Shown here: piece after piece, positions 42,486-55,087 of the stretch
How positions within the stretch are numbered: position 1 is the first letter of the stretch
Layout of the letters: the number at the start of each line of letters is the position of its first letter
The notes under the pieces: generated by a model
Told to the model about the DNA's origin: nothing
What the model saw: the letters and a program-made list of their open reading frames with translations, nothing else
Databases searched by the model: none
NCBI GenBank assembly: GCA_964242725.1
Contig: CAXTCV010000004.1
Coordinates: 721 to 64,720, forward strand
Direction: 5' to 3'
DNA from: an uncultured Methylobacterium sp.
GTDB lineage: Bacteria > Pseudomonadota > Alphaproteobacteria > Rhizobiales > Beijerinckiaceae
Length of the DNA: 64,000 nucleotides
Position numbers and translations under genes: made by a program

Positions 42486-44807
42486 TCAGGCCGCCATCGG
42501 CGCGTAGCGCTTGTGGCCCTTCACGTCGAAGCGGTCGAGCATCATGACCTTGTCCCAGACCCGGACGAAATCCGCCACGAACCGCCGTTGACCGTCACTG
42601 CCGGCATACGCATCGGCAATGGACCGCAGCTGCGCGTTCGATCCAAAGACGAGGTCGCTGCGCGTGGCCTCGAAGCGTGCCTCCCCGCTCGCGCGGTCCT
42701 TGAGCACGAAGGTCATTGCCTCGGCGTCGGCCTTCTCCCAGACGAGGTCGGTGTCGGTCACATTTTTAAAGAAGTCCGTCGTGAGGGCGCCGACGCGATC
42801 GGTGAAGACGCCCCGCTTCGACCCGTCGTAGTTGGCGTTCAACGCCCGCAGGCCGCCCGTCAGGACCGCCCATTCCGGGGCGGTGAGGGTCATCAGGTTG
42901 GCCTTGTCGAGGAACAGTTCCTCCGGCGCCACACTGCGGGTCATCTGTCCGAACCCGTCATCAACGAAGTTCCGGAACCCGTCCGTCACCGGCTTCAGCC
43001 ACTCGAACATCTCGATGTCGGTCAGCTCCTGCGTGGTGTCGACGCGCCCGGGGGTGAACGGCACCGTGACGGCGACGCCGGCATCCTGCGCGGCCTTCTC
43101 CACGCCGACGCAGCCGCCGAGCACGATGAGATCCGCGAGGGAGACCTGCTTGCCGTCGCCGCGCCCGTCGTTGAAGCGCGCCATCACCCCGCGCAGGGCC
43201 TCGACCACCGGCGCGGCGCGCCGGTTGACGGTCCAGTCCTTCTGCGGCGCGAGGGCGAGACGGCCGCCATTGGCGCCGCCACGCTTGTCGCTGTCGCGGT
43301 AGGTCGAGGCCGCCGAGAAGGCCGCGAAGGCCAGATCGGAGACCGACAGGCCGGTGGCGGCAATGGCCTGCTTCAGCGCGGCGATCTCCGCGTCACCGAT
43401 CGGCGCGTAGGCCGCGTCGGGGAGCGGGTCCTGCCACAGAAGCCCATCCTCGATCGTGACCTCCGGGCCGAGATAGCGGTGCTTCGGACCCATGTCGCGG
43501 TGCGTGAGTTTGTACCACGCCTTGGAGAAGGCCTGGGTGAAGGCATCGAAGTCGCCCAAAAACTTCTCGCAGACCTTGCGGTACTCCGGATCGACCTTGA
43601 GGGCGATGTCGGAGGTCATCATCATCAGCGGATGCGTCTGGCCTTCGACATGGGCGTCGGGGGTCCTGGGCGCATTCGGGTCCTTCGGCGTCCACTGGAG
43701 CGCGCCGGCCGGGCTCTTGGTCTGCTCCCACTCGAACTTGAAGAGGTTCTCCAGATATTCGTTGTCCCACTTGGTCGGGTCTTGCGTCCAGCTGCCCTCG
43801 ATGCCGTTGGTCATGGTGTCCTTGCCGGAGCCGGCGCCCTTCGGATTGTGCCAGCCGAGGCCCATCGCCTCCATCGGAGCCATCTCGGGGGGCGGCCCGA
43901 TCTCCTTGGCGGGCACCATGCCGTGGCTCTTGCCGAAGGCGTGACCGCCGGCGATCAGCGCCACCGTCTCCTCGTTGTTCATCGCCATGCGGCTGAAGGT
44001 GATCCGGATGTCGCGCGCCGAGGCCATCGGGTCACCGCTGGCATAGGGTCCCTCGGGGTTCACGTAGATCAGTGCCTGATGGGAGGCCGCGAGCGGGTTC
44101 TCCAGGTCATAGTCGGCGTCGCCGTTCTGGCCGAGCCAGCGCTTGTCGCGGTTGACCATGTCGTCGAAGCTCGACACCGTGCCCATGTCGACGACCTCGG
44201 GACCCCAGTAGGTGGCGTTGTCCGCCTCCCAGGCGTCGAGCCGGCCGCCGCCGAAGCCGTAGGTCGGCAGACCCATGATCTCCAGGGCGCAATTGCCGGT
44301 CAGGACCATGAGGTCGGCCCAGGACAGGGCGTTACCGTACTTGTGCTTGATCGGCTGCAGGAGGCGGCGCGACTTGTCGGTGTTGCCGTTGTCCCACCAG
44401 CTGCTGATCGGCGCGAAGCGCTGCATGCCCGTGCCGGCGCCGCCGCGCCCATCCGCGATCCGATAGGTTCCGGCAGAGTGCCAGGCCATGCGGATCATCT
44501 GCGGACCGTAATTGCCGTAGTCGGACGGCCACCAAGCCACCGACGAGGTCAGGAACTGCTTGATGTCGCGCTTGAGCGCGTCGAGGTCGATCTTATTGAA
44601 CTCGGCCGCGTAGTCGAAGTCCGGCCCGAGGGGATCGGCCGACACCCCGTTCTGGTGGAGGAGCTCGACCCTGAGGCGGTGGGGATACCAGTTCTCCAGC
44701 GCCGGTCGGCCGCCGAAAGCGCCGCCGATCCGGTCGCCTCCGAACGGGCACTTCCCTTCCATCTCGAAAGTCGTGGTATCGGTTTTGTCAATCGTCATTT
44801 CGTTCAT
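42486..44807 (-). CDS. katG: Catalase-peroxidase
   Basis: [40 protein letters not shown] and KVMMLDRFD motifs. Confidence 0.98.
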
Positions 44808-45126
44808 CGAAATCTCACTTGCTATCGAATGACTGCGGTCGATTTGGCTGGCCTGACCCACATTGCGGTCTGCGACCTGCCCTCGCTGCAATCGCTCGAG
44901 CTGACCTTCGGTCCGACCCATGAAATATGGCTGCGGCACCCGAGGTCGAGGTCACGCCCGAAGATTTGTATCCGCGGCCGTCGTCGAGCGGGCCTGCCGT
45001 CAGCGGAGCCCGAGCGAAATCCGGACCCAGGCCTACGGATGGCCGGCCCGACTGCGGCCACTCCCCCGCCGGATCCGATCTCCGCGCCCTCAGAAGGACA
45101 GGTTGCGTACTCGGCGCGGAACCTGC

Positions 45127-46575: not shown

Positions 46576-46890
46576 TCATTTGAAGGCCAGGTTTCTGGCC
46601 AGCAATAATGGCGGCTCCGTCATGCGCTCTTGACTGAACCTCATGGTCGCGACCGCCCCGCCGTCCGGCGCGTTGCGCAGCTCCAGCCGCCCGCCATGCG
46701 CCGTCCTGACGTGGAGGCCGCCGAGCCGGGCCCGGTCGAGGATCTGCTCGACGAGGCGCTCCATGCCGCTCAGATCCTCCATGATCGGACGCGCGACCGC
46801 ACGGCCGGCCATGACCATCTGGGTCTTCATGACGGCGAGCGGCATGTGCAACTCGTGCGCGACGTCCCCGACGAATTGCTCCAGGACGAG
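46576..46890 (-). pseudogene. Sensor histidine kinase remnant
   Basis: H-box FVGDVAHELHMPLA and LVEQILDRARL joined directly to the terminal HGGRLELRNAPDGGA; the N, G1 and G2 boxes and the sensor part are missing. Confidence 0.8.
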
Positions 46891-47207
46891 GCAGCCCTGC
46901 TGCGCTTGCGCGGGTAGTCGTCGGCGCCGCCGTCGAGGGCGTCGATCAGCGCCTCGGTGCTGTCCCGCGCGGGCAGGACCAGGATCGGGCAGCCGGGCCG
47001 GCCTCCGCCCCTGCTGGGCAGGCGCGTCATGCCATCGCGATCCGGCAACCCGAGGTCCAGGATGACGGCATCGTAGGCCGCCGTCGCCAGCGCGGCTTCC
47101 GCATCCTCGCCGGTCCTGACCCAGTCGACGACGGAGCCGTAAACGCGCAGGGCATCGCCGATCAGCGCGCCCAGCCGGCGGTTATCCGCGAGCAAAAGAA
47201 TGCGCCC
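46891..47207 (-). pseudogene. OmpR-family response regulator remnant
   Basis: RILLLADN...YDAVILDLGLPDRDG...LDGGADDY; the expected start codon reads GGG and there is no winged-helix domain. Confidence 0.8.
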
Positions 47208-47381
47208 CTGCGTCTGCGGACCTCAGCACGGATTGCGGTCGGTGTTCGAACGCATCGGGGGAAGCGGTCTACCTCCGAACCTGCGGATTACGATTCAGAG
47301 CGCGCGCCGATAGTGGATACCACGCCGTGCGGGATTGCCGACTCAAAGGGTTTTCCAAGTCGGCACGGCACGTTGCGTCAA

Positions 47382-47684
47382 TCAGGCGCTCCCGATCAGA
47401 ATGCCGGTCGCGAGGATCAGCGCACCGCCGAACATCATCTTCGCAGCCGCCGAGAAGGGCGGCGTGTCCATGTACCGCCACTGGATATAGGCGATCGCCA
47501 GCAGTTCGAAGACCACGACGAGACCGGCCACGATGGTCGCCGTCAGGAAGTCGGGGATGAGATACGGGATCGTGTGACCGATGCCGCCCGCGATGGTCAT
47601 CAGCCCGCAGACCACGCCGCGCAGCAGCGGCGTGCCTCGCCCGGACAGCTTGCCGTCATCGGCCAAGGCCTCGGCGAAGCCCAT
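47382..47684 (-). pseudogene. mbfA: C-terminal fragment of the iron exporter MbfA (VIT1/CCC1 domain)
   Basis: MGFAEALADDGKLSGRG..GGIGHTIPYLIP..IQWRYMDTP..GILIGS; the ferritin-like domain and first TM segments are absent. Confidence 0.8.
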
Positions 47685-48237
47685 CCGGCAGCATGCGGCG
47701 CAGGATCGTGTCGTGCCACAGGTAATGGTGCACCAACGCCGCCGCGGCGTGGAACAGGGCCAGGGCCATCAGGATGTTGGCCGCCAAGCCGTGCCATTGC
47801 GTCAAAGGCCGGCGCCACGCGGGGTCGCCGAGCTGCGGCAGGGCAAGGGACCCGACGAGCGGGACACCCCGCACGACGGCGTTGGCGATGCCGAGGCCGA
47901 CGACGGCGAACAGCAGCACATAGAGGGCCACCTGCGTGGCCTTCGCCAGACGGTGAAGGGGACCCGGATCCGCGACCGGCAGGCTGCGGCCCCGCGTCCG
48001 TCGCCACACGACGAGCCCGACGATCAGGGCGGCAACGGCGAAGCCGACATCGAAATGCGCCGACCAGATGCTTGAGCGCAGGGTGCCCTTGGGGAGGAGA
48101 TCTTCGAGGAACGTGCCGATCAACCAGAGGATCAGCACGAGGACGGCGGTCAGCCAGTGAAGGGCGATCGTGCCACGGTCGTAGGTCGCGGCGCCCGGCG
48201 CGGCCCGCTGGACGGAGATCGTCGGGTTCGCGCTCAT
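47656..48237 (-). CDS. Cytochrome b561 (YceJ/YodB-like)
   Basis: IALHWLTA, AHFDVG, WHGLAA and FHAAAALVHHY...LRRMLP motifs; ATGA overlap with the upstream ORF. Confidence 0.9.
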   Translation of the reverse strand: MSANPTISVQRAAPGAATYDRGTIALHWLTAVLVLILWLIGTFLEDLLPKGTLRSSIWSAHFDVGFAVAALIVGLVVWRRTRGRSLPVADPGPLHRLAKATQVALYVLLFAVVGLGIANAVVRGVPLVGSLALPQLGDPAWRRPLTQWHGLAANILMALALFHAAAALVHHYLWHDTILRRMLPDGLRRGLGR

Positions 48238-48548
48238 CGCGGCATCTCCGCTGCGGCCGTCTCGGGGTGTGGCGGCACGGATCGAGCCTCCGCGCCACCG
48301 GCTGCGGACGGCTGGCGTGGCAGGATGCGGCGGCCCTTCGCGCTCAGGAACCACAGTCCCGGCACCTCGCGGCCGGTTCGACCGGGCAGTCTCGGCCTCA
48401 CGAGCCCGCGTTCGAGCAGGGAGCGCACGGTCCGCATCTCCCAGGGCCCGAGCGAATGTAGCGATCCCTCCGCACCCAGGCGCTGCAACATCGTCCGCTG
48501 TCCCGGGGTGAGGGCGCGCCAAGCTTGGGCTGCGACGTGGTCGGTCAT
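48234..48548 (-). CDS. Hypothetical protein, possible winged helix
   Basis: LTPGQR..L, SLLERGLV and LSAKGRRIL pattern; translationally coupled to cytochrome b561. Confidence 0.65.
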   Translation of the reverse strand: MTDHVAAQAWRALTPGQRTMLQRLGAEGSLHSLGPWEMRTVRSLLERGLVRPRLPGRTGREVPGLWFLSAKGRRILPRQPSAAGGAEARSVPPHPETAAAEMPR

Positions 48549-48553
48549 CTTAG

Positions 48554-48570
48554 ATTGGAATTAGTCTAAA
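48554..48570. promoter_or_regulatory. Iron control element (Irr box)
   Basis: ATTGGAATTAGTCTAAA matches the ICE consensus TTTRGAAYNRTTCYAAA at 15/17, 5 nt from the operon's first ATG. Confidence 0.75.
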
Positions 48571-48927: not shown

Positions 48928-48953
48928 GGAACGCTCCGCTCCCGCTCGGTGTT
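48928..48953 (+). promoter_or_regulatory. Putative sigma-EcfG promoter of the His-rich gene
   Basis: GGAAC-N17-TGTT about 70 nt upstream of the ATG at 49023. Confidence 0.6.
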
Positions 48954-49022
48954 TCAGACCGCGTCACGGCCATCGACCCGGTCATGAGGGCCGCCGGCGC
49001 CGTTCCTGAAAGGATCCCGTCA

Positions 49023-49409
49023 ATGGACAAGACAGTCGCTGGCCTGATCGGAGCCGTCACGCTCCTGGCCGCCGTCGACCCGGCGCGCGCCGCCATGCCG
49101 GCCCCGACCGGCCTGAAGGCGGCCATGCAGGCCGAGAGCTACGCCGACCTGCTGAAGCCGATTCCCGACGCGGTGGCGCTCCTGAAGGAATCCGACGCGG
49201 CCGAGGCGAAGGCCGAGTTGTTAGCGCCCGCCACCGAGGGCGAGGCGACGGTCCAGGAGGCTCAGTACTACTACCATCACCACCATCATCATCATCACCG
49301 CTTCTACCGTCGCTTCTACCACCACCATCACCACCACCACCGGTTCTTCCGGCGGTTCCACCACCATCACCATCATCACCACGGCTACTTCCGCCCCTAC
49401 GGCTACTGA
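49023..49409 (+). CDS. Secreted poly-histidine precursor-like protein, 128 aa
   Basis: AAGGA RBS, signal peptide (PARA), acidic pro-region, then AQ-YYY-H8-RFYRRFY-H7-RFFRRF-H8-GYFRPYGY. Confidence 0.88.
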   Translation: MDKTVAGLIGAVTLLAAVDPARAAMPAPTGLKAAMQAESYADLLKPIPDAVALLKESDAAEAKAELLAPATEGEATVQEAQYYYHHHHHHHHRFYRRFYHHHHHHHRFFRRFHHHHHHHHGYFRPYGY

Positions 49410-49417
49410 GCAGCCGG

Positions 49418-49447
49418 CCGCGGGGAGGCGCGCGCGCCTCCTCGCGG
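49418..49447. terminator. GC-rich hairpin between convergent genes
   Basis: CCGCGGGGAGGCG...CGCCTCCTCGCGG stem. Confidence 0.5.
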
Positions 49448-49451
49448 TCCG

Positions 49452-50165
49452 TCACCGCGTGGTCTTCGCCGCGCCCAGGATGCGCCGGTAGGTCCCATCG
49501 AACACGGTGTTGGTCGCCGAAGTCCATTGCGAATCCGACGCCAGAGTCGACCGGCTGGCATAGATCCGCCGGGACTGCAGTTCGCGCTCGGCGGCCTCCT
49601 CCTCGGGCATGGGCACGAGTTCGAAATCCGCCTCCGCCGGCACCACGGTCACCTGCATGAACGGCTCGCCCGGCCGGAACACGTGGGTGCGCCCCTCGTC
49701 TGGCGACTTGAAGACCATGAAATACATCATCGGCCACCAGTTCCGCAGGAGCGCCGGCACCGCGACCGGAACGGTCCCGGTCCGGTCGGTGTAGAAGCGG
49801 GGATGGGTCTCGGTCTTGATCGCCCAGCCGTCCTCCACCTTCAGGTCGAGGAGGATCTGATAGGTGTAATAGGCATCGCCGAAGGTCCGGAACGGCGGCC
49901 ATTGCATGCCGGGCTCCGGCGGTTCGCCGAGATCGCCCTCGAAGACGAGCGCCCCGTCACGGGTGCTGACGCGCAATTCGGCATCGTAGGGGTAGAACAG
50001 CTCGATCCCCGCTTTGGCCGCTTCCGAGAACGGCAGGCAGTGCCATGCATATTCCTGCGACCCGTCGGTGCGGGGCTCCGGGTCGCCCGCCCAACCGGGG
50101 ATCTCGAGCCGCGTGCGCCGCGGGCGCAGGCCCGGCTCCACCAACCTGAACTTGACGTGTCGCAT
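49452..50165 (-). CDS. Hypothetical protein, DUF6065-like
   Basis: AWHCLPFSEA..GIEL and FRPGEPFMQV..VP motifs; strong coding bias. Family recalled, not searched. Confidence 0.65.
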   Translation of the reverse strand: MRHVKFRLVEPGLRPRRTRLEIPGWAGDPEPRTDGSQEYAWHCLPFSEAAKAGIELFYPYDAELRVSTRDGALVFEGDLGEPPEPGMQWPPFRTFGDAYYTYQILLDLKVEDGWAIKTETHPRFYTDRTGTVPVAVPALLRNWWPMMYFMVFKSPDEGRTHVFRPGEPFMQVTVVPAEADFELVPMPEEEAAERELQSRRIYASRSTLASDSQWTSATNTVFDGTYRRILGAAKTTR

Positions 50166-50376
50166 GCCAGCCGTCCCGACGAGTCCGGTCCCCGTAACGT
50201 CCTGCGGGTCGAGAGGGTTCAGCGTTCGGCTTGCGGCGGGCAGCGGCTCAGACCCCGGCCGTGATCACGGGGGTGCCGCCGATCACAGGGAGCGCTCCCG
50301 GCGCGGGCAACCTGACCACGGTCCCGGTGCCGACATCCGGCAGCGTGCGCCGGTTCGCGCGCGCGTTCGCCCGCGC

Positions 50377-51259: not shown

Positions 51260-51284
51260 GGAACCCGTCGACCCGGTTCGTGTT
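51260..51284 (+). promoter_or_regulatory. Putative sigma-EcfG promoter
   Basis: GGAAC-N16-TGTT about 32 nt upstream of the ATG at 51317. Confidence 0.6.
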
Positions 51285-51316: not shown

Positions 51317-51586
51317 ATGCGTAAGCTGGTACTCATCTCCGCCGTGGCGCTGAGCCTCGGGACCGCCGGCGCAAGCGGCGCTCAGGCGCAGGGTTATGGC
51401 TATGGCGGCCACCGCGACGGGTACGGCCACGGCTACGGCCGGAACCGGGATTACGGCGACCGCCGCCACCGCGGCCTCTCAACGGGTGCCGCAGTCGGCC
51501 TCGGGATTGCCGGCGCCGCGGCCGGTGCCGCGGCTGCGGGGGCCTTCGACCGCGGCAGTCCGGGCTATTACGGCCGCGGCTACTGA
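51317..51586 (+). CDS. Secreted Gly/Tyr/Arg-rich small protein
   Basis: Signal peptide (AQAQ), GYG repeats, glycine-zipper-like GAAVGLGIAGAAAG. Confidence 0.85.
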   Translation: MRKLVLISAVALSLGTAGASGAQAQGYGYGGHRDGYGHGYGRNRDYGDRRHRGLSTGAAVGLGIAGAAAGAAAAGAFDRGSPGYYGRGY

Positions 51587-54688: not shown

Positions 54689-55030
54689 TCAGCGGTCGAG
54701 GATGCGCACCACCGCGCGGGTGGCGGGATCGACCACCACGATCTTGTCGCCCGGCGCCACGAAGTAGCCGAAGCGGCGCAGGCGCGGGTTCGGCGCTTCC
54801 GTGAAGGGCGCGAGCCTCACGTCCTCGGGCACGATGCTGCCGGGCCGGAGCGGGATCGAACCGACGATGGGGCCGGGCCCGACCGGACGGCGCACGATGT
54901 AGTCCCGCACGATGACATCGTCGTCGGGGCCGAACTCGTCGGGCTCCACGATGACGGCCTGCGCGAAGGCGGATCCGGTGAACAGGGCGGCGAACCCGAG
55001 GGCGGCCGCGAGGCTTGCGCGTTTCGACAT
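54689..55030 (-). CDS. DUF1236-like secreted protein
   Basis: Signal peptide (AFAQ), GSIVPEDVRLAP and YF...IVVVDPATRAVVRIL. Confidence 0.82.
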   Translation of the reverse strand: MSKRASLAAALGFAALFTGSAFAQAVIVEPDEFGPDDDVIVRDYIVRRPVGPGPIVGSIPLRPGSIVPEDVRLAPFTEAPNPRLRRFGYFVAPGDKIVVVDPATRAVVRILDR

Positions 55031-55061
55031 GTCGGGCTCCGAGATCACCAGGGCAGCCGGA

Positions 55062-55087
55062 AACACCGCCGATCCAGGATCGGTTCC
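55062..55087 (-). promoter_or_regulatory. Putative sigma-EcfG promoter
   Basis: GGAAC-N17-TGTT about 31 nt upstream of the ATG at 55030. Confidence 0.6.

Follow-up and report, generated by a model that had tools for sequence, protein, structure and literature searches.

When a histidine-rich secreted peptide and a protein related to DUF6065 (PF19541) are encoded side by side, the question arises whether the two genes form one system and what such a system would do. The pair considered here lies on a contig of an uncultured Methylobacterium sp. (CAXTCV010000004.1, positions 721 to 64,720 of the forward strand), a stretch of 64,000 nucleotides referred to below as the window, in whose coordinates positions are given unless another locus is named. 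One gene encodes a His-rich precursor and the other, converging on it from the opposite strand, its partner protein. We conclude that the pair is a real, undescribed two-gene system in which the theme of an exported metallophore, akin to the peptides that are made on ribosomes and then altered after translation (RiPPs), would be carried by unrelated parts, and we hold it almost certain that the two genes are functionally coupled. Nothing was found in the literature on this pair, or on DUF6065, subscription papers and supplements, notably the EcfG regulon tables, being outside the scope of the search.

The coupling was assessed in four genome samples, which overlap slightly and whose related members are not independent. 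In the genus sample (101 genomes, that of the window included) the precursor occurs in 20 genomes and the partner in the same 20, adjacent and convergent in 20/20; one genome carries the pair twice, by joint duplication, and one has an extra lone precursor. Similarly, amongst 181 genomes of the family of genome G255, a strong precursor match was found in 13 and a full-length partner in the same 13, where 12 pairs are adjacent (7 convergent, 3 tandem and 2 divergent) and the members of the remaining pair are 390 kb apart; these counts exclude a single weak precursor row as well as three genomes in which only short fragments of the partner were matched. The order sample (300 genomes) includes two genomes with both genes, adjacent, a third precursor row being a weak His-only match, and the class sample (300 genomes) includes one, again with the genes adjacent. 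Matches in G187 (E 2.7e-4, no match to the pro-region) and G501 (E 6e-5), as well as short partner fragments in G284, G437, G482 and G538, were dropped before counting, and with 9-45 candidates scored per genome some copies may have been missed.

A scan of species genomes confirmed at least 544 partner relatives among at least 599 stretches, and the best 80 were used for the analysis of loci. An adjacent precursor is present at 76 of these 80 (74 convergent, 2 tandem); of the other four loci, three are truncated by the end of the contig, and a precursor is encoded in each of the four genomes. The named hosts include Methylobacterium, Lichenifustis, Methylocystis, Methylocella, Roseiarcus, Bradyrhizobium, Afipia and Rhodopila, and on a Polymorphobacter plasmid the partner (55% identity) is followed by the His precursor and then by a sigma-factor gene. 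Seen from the precursor side, the partner is present at 33 of 45 metagenome loci, about eight of the other 12 being cut short or not intact. Distances between pro-regions and between partners are correlated (Mantel r 0.48 over 78 pairs, 0.49 without Methylobacterium), a figure to which shared ancestry contributes; the partner tree is a quick tree only, and no donor or direction of transfer is claimed from it.

The initial annotation of this DNA had left the link between the two genes unproven and had proposed to look for its neighbourhood conservation and for co-occurring tailoring or transport genes. Matching presence and absence in the four samples, adjacency maintained through rearrangements and the joint duplication now link the genes. 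The DUF6065 partner does track the precursor, whereas no conserved third gene family recurs widely, either at the 80 loci or in the 100 of 124 flanking open reading frames (ORFs) from 36 diverse loci that were scanned. These flanking ORFs are mostly unrelated housekeeping genes, and the commonest neighbour family, mbfA, is found at 16 of the 80 loci. Precursor and partner thus appear to have been inherited as one cassette across several alphaproteobacterial families, a reading strongly supported by the genome comparisons. A dedicated partner gene, genetically linked to its precursor, is the arrangement expected of a RiPP pathway, and we infer a tailoring role for it.

The features of both genes are listed in Table 1. 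The build of the precursor as a prepropeptide, with Sec signal, pro-region, boundary and tail, had been recognised from its ORF and is conserved in 78 precursors, the family alignment being drawn from loci with a full partner and leaving out duplicates and partial loci. By inspection, the signal peptide (a Lys, a hydrophobic stretch and an A-x-A end) is conserved across these homologues, with K3, G7, G10, A11, L15 and A23 kept in at least 90% of them. An upstream ATG at 48984 was rejected as the start, as the homologues begin at MDK and the ribosome-binding site fits 49023. The tail, counted as the residues after Gln81, has the previously described composition of six residue types (H23 Y8 R7 F6 G2 P1), and its three His runs, 8, 7 and 8 residues long, are separated by RFYRRFY and RFFRRF.

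The mixed His codons of this tail (14 CAC and 9 CAT) had been taken as a sign of selection rather than slippage, and the codon statistics bear this out. CAT makes up 39% of the His codons of the tail vs 28.5% genome-wide, and a comparison with 11 Methylobacterium orthologues gives 96 synonymous CAC/CAT changes and 3 non-His changes, counts that depend on the alignment. Since CAT is over-used and the changes at His codons are overwhelmingly synonymous, the tail is not a slipped CAC repeat: purifying selection acts on its His codons, and a slippage artefact as the origin of the His runs was ruled out by the mixed codons together with this selection. Precursor and partner are each single-copy in this genome (83% complete), and the named homologues nearest to the pair are all from Methylobacterium. 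The convergence of the genes over a short gap was likewise found as described; the hairpin in it (-33.1 and -30.2 kcal/mol on the two strands, without a U-tract) is a possible terminator shared by both genes.

Table 1. Coordinates of the features of the precursor and partner genes in the window
Feature	Position	Strand	Basis or remark
EcfG-type promoter motif GGAAC-N17-TGTT (= GGAAC-N18-GTT)	48928..48953	+	95 bp before precursor start
AAGGA ribosome-binding site of precursor	49010-49014	+	8 bases 5' of start codon
His-rich precursor gene, 128 aa	49023..49409	+	ORF listing; start Met common to 78/78 aligned homologues
Predicted Sec signal peptide, precursor residues 1-23, end A-R-A	49023..49091	+	by inspection of sequence
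Pro-region motif S39-L54 (SYADLLKPIPDAVALL), family-defining	49137..49184	+	predicted helix-turn-helix; candidate partner-recognition site
V-x-x-[A/V]-Q boundary (VQEAQ), putative site of a second cleavage	49251..49265	+	homologue alignment
47-aa His/Tyr/Arg/Phe core, three His runs	49266..49406	+	composition count
Gap between the two stop codons, 42 bp, GC-rich hairpin	49410..49451	.	folding energy
Partner gene, 237 aa, without signal peptide, divergent DUF6065 subfamily	49452..50165	-	Pfam scan, homologues, model
Partner W41-H42-C43-x-P45-F46 motif	50028..50045	-	Cys43 invariant in wider family
EcfG-type promoter motif TGAAC-N17-CGTT	50196..50221	-	56 bp before partner start

Across the 78 precursors it is the pro-region that is most strictly kept. 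Its motif S-x-x-x-LL-x-PIP-x-A is nearly invariant (S39 99%, L43 100%, L44 99%, P46 100%, I47 100%, P48 96%, A50 99%, L54 99%) and is followed by a variable acidic spacer and by the boundary, where Gln is present in 74/78 and Val in 76%. Tails are 20-63 aa long, consist of 47% His, 17% Tyr and 10% Arg, end in Tyr in 53/78 and contain no Cys in any of the 78; the median of K+R-D-E is +4 for the core and -3.5 for the pro-region. A conserved leader joined to a variable core in a ribosomal precursor is again what is expected of RiPPs. The AlphaFold2 model of the precursor is of low confidence (predicted local distance difference test, pLDDT, 60.8) with an unstructured tail, and its most confident part comprises helices 40-44 and 50-64, which lie over the conserved motif. 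When the window protein and the 78 homologues were scanned, no Pfam family and no specific NCBIfam family was found for the precursor, weak matches to RecG, NicO, ZrgA, DmeF and ZnuA being rejected as composition-driven or weak. An Atlas query with homologue P0005 returned unnamed clusters only, with BRANT (PF28279) at 0.76 as a lead; the Pfam and NCBIfam copies scanned, which may lack that model, gave no match to it.

Other secreted peptides help to separate what is particular to this family from what is shared. With the Rhizobiales secreted peptides GCG_CRPN (NF047412) and BRANT the precursor has in common a signal peptide, a spacer, a V-x-x-A-type boundary and a low-complexity aromatic/basic tail. 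Particular to the precursor family are the long conserved pro-motif and the partner gene, and 0/78 precursors match NF047412. A crude scan of the 485 small signal-peptide ORFs of the genome found six with similar boundary and tail composition, of which one is another His/Arg-rich secreted peptide without the pro-motif and one a GCG_CRPN protein. As a similar boundary occurs in unrelated secreted peptides of the same genome, the Gln boundary looks general to secreted peptides of this kind, and the S39-L54 motif looks specific to the precursor family. A second gene for a secreted His/Arg/Trp-rich peptide (L310:1242-1547 (-), contig C16 of this same genome, G000, 102 aa) has a VQLAR boundary and an EcfG-type motif upstream, and has neither the conserved pro-motif nor an NCBIfam match. 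Hybrid precursors (L106:7605-7778 (-), L287 and P0040) share the pro-motif and have a His run, but continue into another kind of tail that ends in a two-Cys C...RVRVC-type segment, which suggests tail swapping with another secreted peptide family.

The neighbour had been called DUF6065-like, and the partner does pass the PF19541 gathering cut-off, by a narrow margin (27.0 bits vs 26.6); because the score is marginal and many close homologues carry no Pfam label, it is treated as a divergent DUF6065 subfamily. Of the HCLP motif noticed earlier, the conserved form is W-H-C-x-P-F, whereas its Leu varies. In the wide family alignment Cys43, Glu55, His121, Pro155, Arg194 and Tyr226 are invariant. 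The AlphaFold2 model (pLDDT 73.8, predicted template modelling score 0.64) consists of a beta domain (residues 1-179) and C-terminal helices. On comparison by VIA-align it matched Aquifex dUTPase (Z 8.9, root mean square deviation 3.2, 119 residues aligned), the top 12 rows were all dUTPases and the first clearly unrelated fold followed at Z 4.8. One distant homologue matches the dUTPase Pfam family at E 1.2e-3, and the partner itself is not matched by PF00692 at E <= 0.05. From these model comparisons a dUTPase-like fold is predicted for the partner.

The position of the dUTPase motifs was mapped by aligning the profile of 41 members of the family to that of 26 dUTPases, an alignment that is collinear but weak. 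It places the motif I Asp at Glu55, the motif II Arg at His121, the motif IV Gln at Gln171 and the motif V Arg at Arg194. In dUTPases motif III carries the catalytic Asp, as is also seen in the 26 aligned here; that position is variable in the partner (Arg141), where the same weak alignment sets GLIDSDY against ALLRNWW, and no DxDY is present in the partner sequence. Nor does the partner contain the Gly-rich motif V (RGxGGFGSTG), of which only the Arg aligns, the model having a long helix (188-208) in its place. The partner thus resembles the trimeric dUTPase/dCTP deaminase superfamily in its predicted fold, in the motif IV region GEPFxQ and, by the weak alignment, in the acid and Arg positions of motifs I and V; it differs from dUTPase in lacking the GxIDxDY motif III and the Gly-rich motif V and in having extra Cys/His and the C-terminal helices. 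An ordinary dUTPase is encoded elsewhere in the same genome.

The partner family in its wider sense, for which 480 representatives were obtained at E <= 0.001, includes many C-terminal TPR fusions, tandem duplicated domains and one methyltransferase fusion (examples among P0311; P0166, P0167, P0173; P0200, P0223, P0225, P0265, P0300). The fusion to a class I methyltransferase domain is found in one close homologue, which shares 59% identity with the partner and is known from one metagenome sequence. Matches to solved structures through the wide partner alignment were discarded, as they arose only through the TPR domains of fused members. A canonical DUF6065 protein of Niveispirillum (L188:4914-5648, CLPLNIAN motif, 26% identity) adjoins a long lptD-like gene, judged by reading, and no His peptide is present at its locus.

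In phages only distant relatives of the partner were detected. PHROGs gave no match for the window partner, distant members matching just two families there, both unnamed, the partner had no match in annotated phages, and a scan of viral contigs with the close family confirmed 0/44 candidate stretches. For distant viral homologues 203 stretches were confirmed, of which 80 were kept for locus analysis, with a tail sheath stabiliser as neighbour at 78, a sheath at 70 and a tube at 50. These homologues (L192-L271) are embedded in the tail/neck module of large uncultured phages and are encoded on the strand opposite to it. At 15/46 distinct anchored loci, a count that excludes duplicates and seven loci lacking an anchor match, a small convergent Pro/Ala/Gln-rich low-complexity ORF with the start MKSF-x-[E/Q]-F was observed, a possible analogue of a leader-plus-repeat client.

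Regulation provides a further tie between the two genes. The EcfG motif is given as GGAAC-N17-20-GTT in the available text of PMC6599016, and a motif of this type precedes both genes of the window; the initial annotation had correctly placed the one before the precursor and had missed the second, upstream of the partner. Across homologues GGAAC-N16-18-GTT is found within 350 bp upstream of 63/101 precursors (shuffles: mean 1.4, maximum 4) and of 23/98 partners (shuffles: mean 1.0, maximum 3), and a GAAC variant lies upstream of 40/98 partners vs a shuffle mean of 4.0, the RpoN motif not being enriched upstream of the cassette genes. We infer from these motifs that sigma-EcfG may switch on both genes from separate promoters, and with twin EcfG-type promoters the co-induction of two convergent genes would be explicable. 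The RNA data comprise one freshwater metatranscriptome (4% of words), from which six contigs of 151 bases matched the window at a depth of 2-5, five being less than 90% alike.

Physical recognition of the precursor by the partner is, in our judgement, probable. A complex of three partner copies with precursor residues 1-92 was predicted with a score of 0.47 (best of three controls 0.00); the runs share at least 41% of contacts, and the partner has a pLDDT of 52 or more in the complex, as against 26 when folded with an unrelated protein. In a calibration whose set-up differs from this one, the mark was reached by 116/157 solved complexes and 2/215 mismatched pairs; as it was reached with a score of 0.60 or below by only 18/157 solved complexes and by both mismatches, the model speaks weakly for binding of residues 1-92, and the score counts only because the genomic prior is already high.

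The pair likely forms a minimal RiPP-like pathway, which could operate in the following manner. During the general stress response sigma-EcfG would induce both genes from their separate promoters, and the cytoplasmic partner would bind the S39-L54 motif of the pro-region before export. It would then tailor the tail by means of a site remodelled from the triphosphate-binding region of dUTPase, with Glu55, His121, Gln171 and Arg194 at motifs I, II, IV and V, Cys43 added, and the catalytic Asp and Gly-rich loop lost. Sec would export the precursor, signal peptidase would cut it after Ala23 and a general extracytoplasmic protease after Gln81, and the freed His/Tyr/Arg peptide would buffer transition metals outside the cytoplasm under stress. 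The steps differ in probability: covalent tailoring, as opposed to escorting, is evenly balanced, metal buffering is the somewhat favoured role of the peptide in vivo, and the whole chain from EcfG induction through binding, tailoring, export and cleavage to buffering is a tentative proposal, a little more apt to fail at some step than to hold throughout. Rather unlikely is its boldest form, a new RiPP class in which a dUTPase-derived Cys/His/Glu centre would read the pro-helix and repeatedly modify His (or Tyr) to yield an exported, stress-induced metallophore; if true, it would provide the first activity for the DUF6065 family, whose phage members also adjoin virion proteins rich in repeats.

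Several observations weigh against this proposal. Four genomes of the genus sample carry a broken pair (L021-L024; G021, G035, G093 and G095), and their reading as independent co-pseudogenisations had to be given up: the sequences are identical (over 3,258 bp for L022-L024 and over the 500 bp compared for L021), which reduces them to one event and points to recent spread by a mobile element or to very close genomes. Four metagenome precursor loci with 0.8-1.5 kb of downstream sequence show no partner, and extra precursor copies lie away from the partner in G072, G416 and G515. Of the structural checks suggested with the initial annotation, modelling gave the dUTPase-like partner and the weakly scored complex, but Foldseek returned no match for the partner model at E <= 0.001 (best 5e-3), although every one of its weak rows is a dUTPase or dCTP deaminase; the profile alignment with dUTPases has an E of 0.006 and a probability of 6%. 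No DUF6065 activity was found in the literature, so that calling the partner an enzyme is interpretive. At the 80 phage loci with distant partner homologues there is no His precursor; the partner fold therefore does not require a His peptide. The tail, except for its His runs, has no fixed residue pattern for a site-specific enzyme. As regards metals, no metal-sensor gene recurs among the neighbour ORFs scanned, and metal-related neighbours, including mbfA (16 of 80 loci), are lineage-specific.

A partner acting as a dedicated escort and not as an enzyme would account for much of this evidence. It would bind the pro-region, shield the poly-His tail from cytoplasmic Zn, Ni and Cu and from aggregation, keep the chain competent for Sec and see the peptide exported unmodified. 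Such a role explains the strict pairing of both genes and fits the lost dUTPase catalytic motifs, the free variation of tails and the weak binding prediction, and unmodified His runs bind metals anyway, as the accessible part of the work on Hpn (PMC4671568) indicates. Harder to reconcile with it is the invariance of Cys43, Glu55, His121 and Arg194 even in phage and TPR-fused homologues without a His client, which looks catalytic; moreover, beside the His/Arg-rich secreted peptide of contig C16, which lacks the motif, no such partner gene was found. An escort is on balance unlikely, though the likeliest of the alternatives. The invariant Cys, His and Glu could also belong to a peptidase or transpeptidase cutting the precursor, for example after Gln81; Gln-specific cysteine proteases exist, and the near-constant boundary Gln (74/78) would suit one. 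However, as the partner has no signal peptide, its cut would fall in the cytoplasm and part the core from its export signal, and a comparable V-x-x-A-[Q/R] boundary is present in a secreted peptide that has no such partner, which leaves this function quite improbable.

The role of the peptide may be questioned in the same way. A His/Arg/aromatic peptide could be antimicrobial, or could self-assemble into a matrix or coacervate, with a partner that matures it or protects the producer: its cationic aromatic core (+4) behind an acidic pro-region (-3.5) is the arrangement of prepro antimicrobial peptides, and histatins, which are His-rich, are described as antimicrobial. Yet the neighbours include no recurrent exporter, membrane immunity gene or toxin cassette, certain tails consist almost wholly of His and contain little Arg, and EcfG-type control points to self-protection under stress; we regard such a function as improbable, if somewhat less so than a peptidase. 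That two independent stress genes are found together through shared EcfG regulation and hitch-hiking on mobile DNA would agree with their convergent orientation and separate promoters, with a patchy distribution that includes copies on plasmids and with phage homologues lacking the peptide. It is made very improbable by the match of presence and absence in all four genome samples, by adjacency kept across three layouts with one genome retaining both genes although far apart, and by the other EcfG-motif genes of the window, which are not among the recurring neighbours.

The proposed RiPP-like pathway has its closest counterpart in the bufferins of Caulobacter (buf1/buf2), where, according to the available text of PMC11626156, a Sec-exported precursor with dedicated cytoplasmic modifiers and control by an extracytoplasmic function (ECF) sigma factor binds copper in the periplasm. 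The cassette resembles them in its small precursor with a predicted Sec signal, in the cytoplasmic partner dedicated to it, in its probable control by an ECF sigma factor and in the proposed extracytoplasmic binding of excess metal. In bufferins, as described in the same text, Cys peptides are converted to thiooxazoles by MNIO (DUF692) with DUF2063 under SigF, whereas the cassette has cores without Cys, a 58-aa pro-region, a single partner of predicted dUTPase-like fold and an EcfG-type motif. Neither MNIO (DUF692) nor DUF2063 is among the 100 neighbour ORFs scanned or the window neighbours, and the cassette does not belong to the bufferins or oxazolins, though in its working it resembles bufferins. 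Hpn and Hpn-2 are small, very His-rich Helicobacter proteins, and Hpn is reported to sequester nickel (PMC4671568, in part); the likeness is one of composition only and implies no homology. Hpn controls intracellular nickel, and the precursor instead carries a signal peptide and a conserved pro-region and is accompanied by a partner gene of its own.

For the partner, the relevant precedent is a protein of dUTPase fold, bearing a conserved cysteine, from a peptide-modification gene array of phage Syn9, DUF6065/dUTPase-fold proteins of this type having been flagged in such phage arrays in 2010 (PMC2938197, as far as its accessible text goes). Fold, conserved Cys and, for Syn9, the peptide-modification context are alike; the Syn9 protein is accompanied by ten dioxygenases and two halogenases, and that text defines no substrate for it. 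Unlike these arrays of many enzymes without a clear substrate, the cassette consists of one protein and one evident client, of which the partner is the sole companion. Its hosts include culturable members of Methylobacterium, Methylocystis, Methylocella and Bradyrhizobium, and a His tag is already built into the client. Should the tail prove to be modified, the cassette would represent new peptide chemistry on a repurposed dUTPase fold, and if it is not, a dedicated export escort for natural poly-His peptides; under either outcome a concrete output would be added to the alphaproteobacterial general stress response.

An Irr-boxed iron operon had been reported next to the pair. An Irr-like box is indeed present at 48554-48570 (15/17 to the consensus), 469 bp from the precursor start, but it lies beside leftward genes, and the operon is a decayed remnant. 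The region 46576-48570 (-) comprises the box, a 104-aa ORF, cytochrome b561, an mbfA remnant of which only the C-terminal ~100-120 codons are left, and, further on, a fragmentary response regulator and fragments of what is probably a sensor kinase; contig C86 has another partial match to mbfA. No Irr-like box with two or fewer mismatches was found within 350 bp of 101 precursors, and near-perfect boxes occur upstream of 19/98 partners, mostly with a divergent mbfA (Bradyrhizobium clade, Lichenifustis). Because these boxes mostly go with divergent mbfA and none precedes a precursor, the iron link, real in some lineages, appears to lie outside the cassette itself, and membership of the cassette in an iron/Irr operon was rejected.

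Four further EcfG-type motifs are present in the window, at 51260, 55087 (-), 40875 and 11170 (-). One precedes a small secreted Gly/Tyr/Arg-rich ORF without a family match (51317-51586 (+)) and another a DUF1236 gene (54689-55066 (-)). A catalase-peroxidase-type gene (Pfam peroxidase, two stretches) lies at 42486-44939 (-), about 4 kb from the cassette, in keeping with a region of stress genes.

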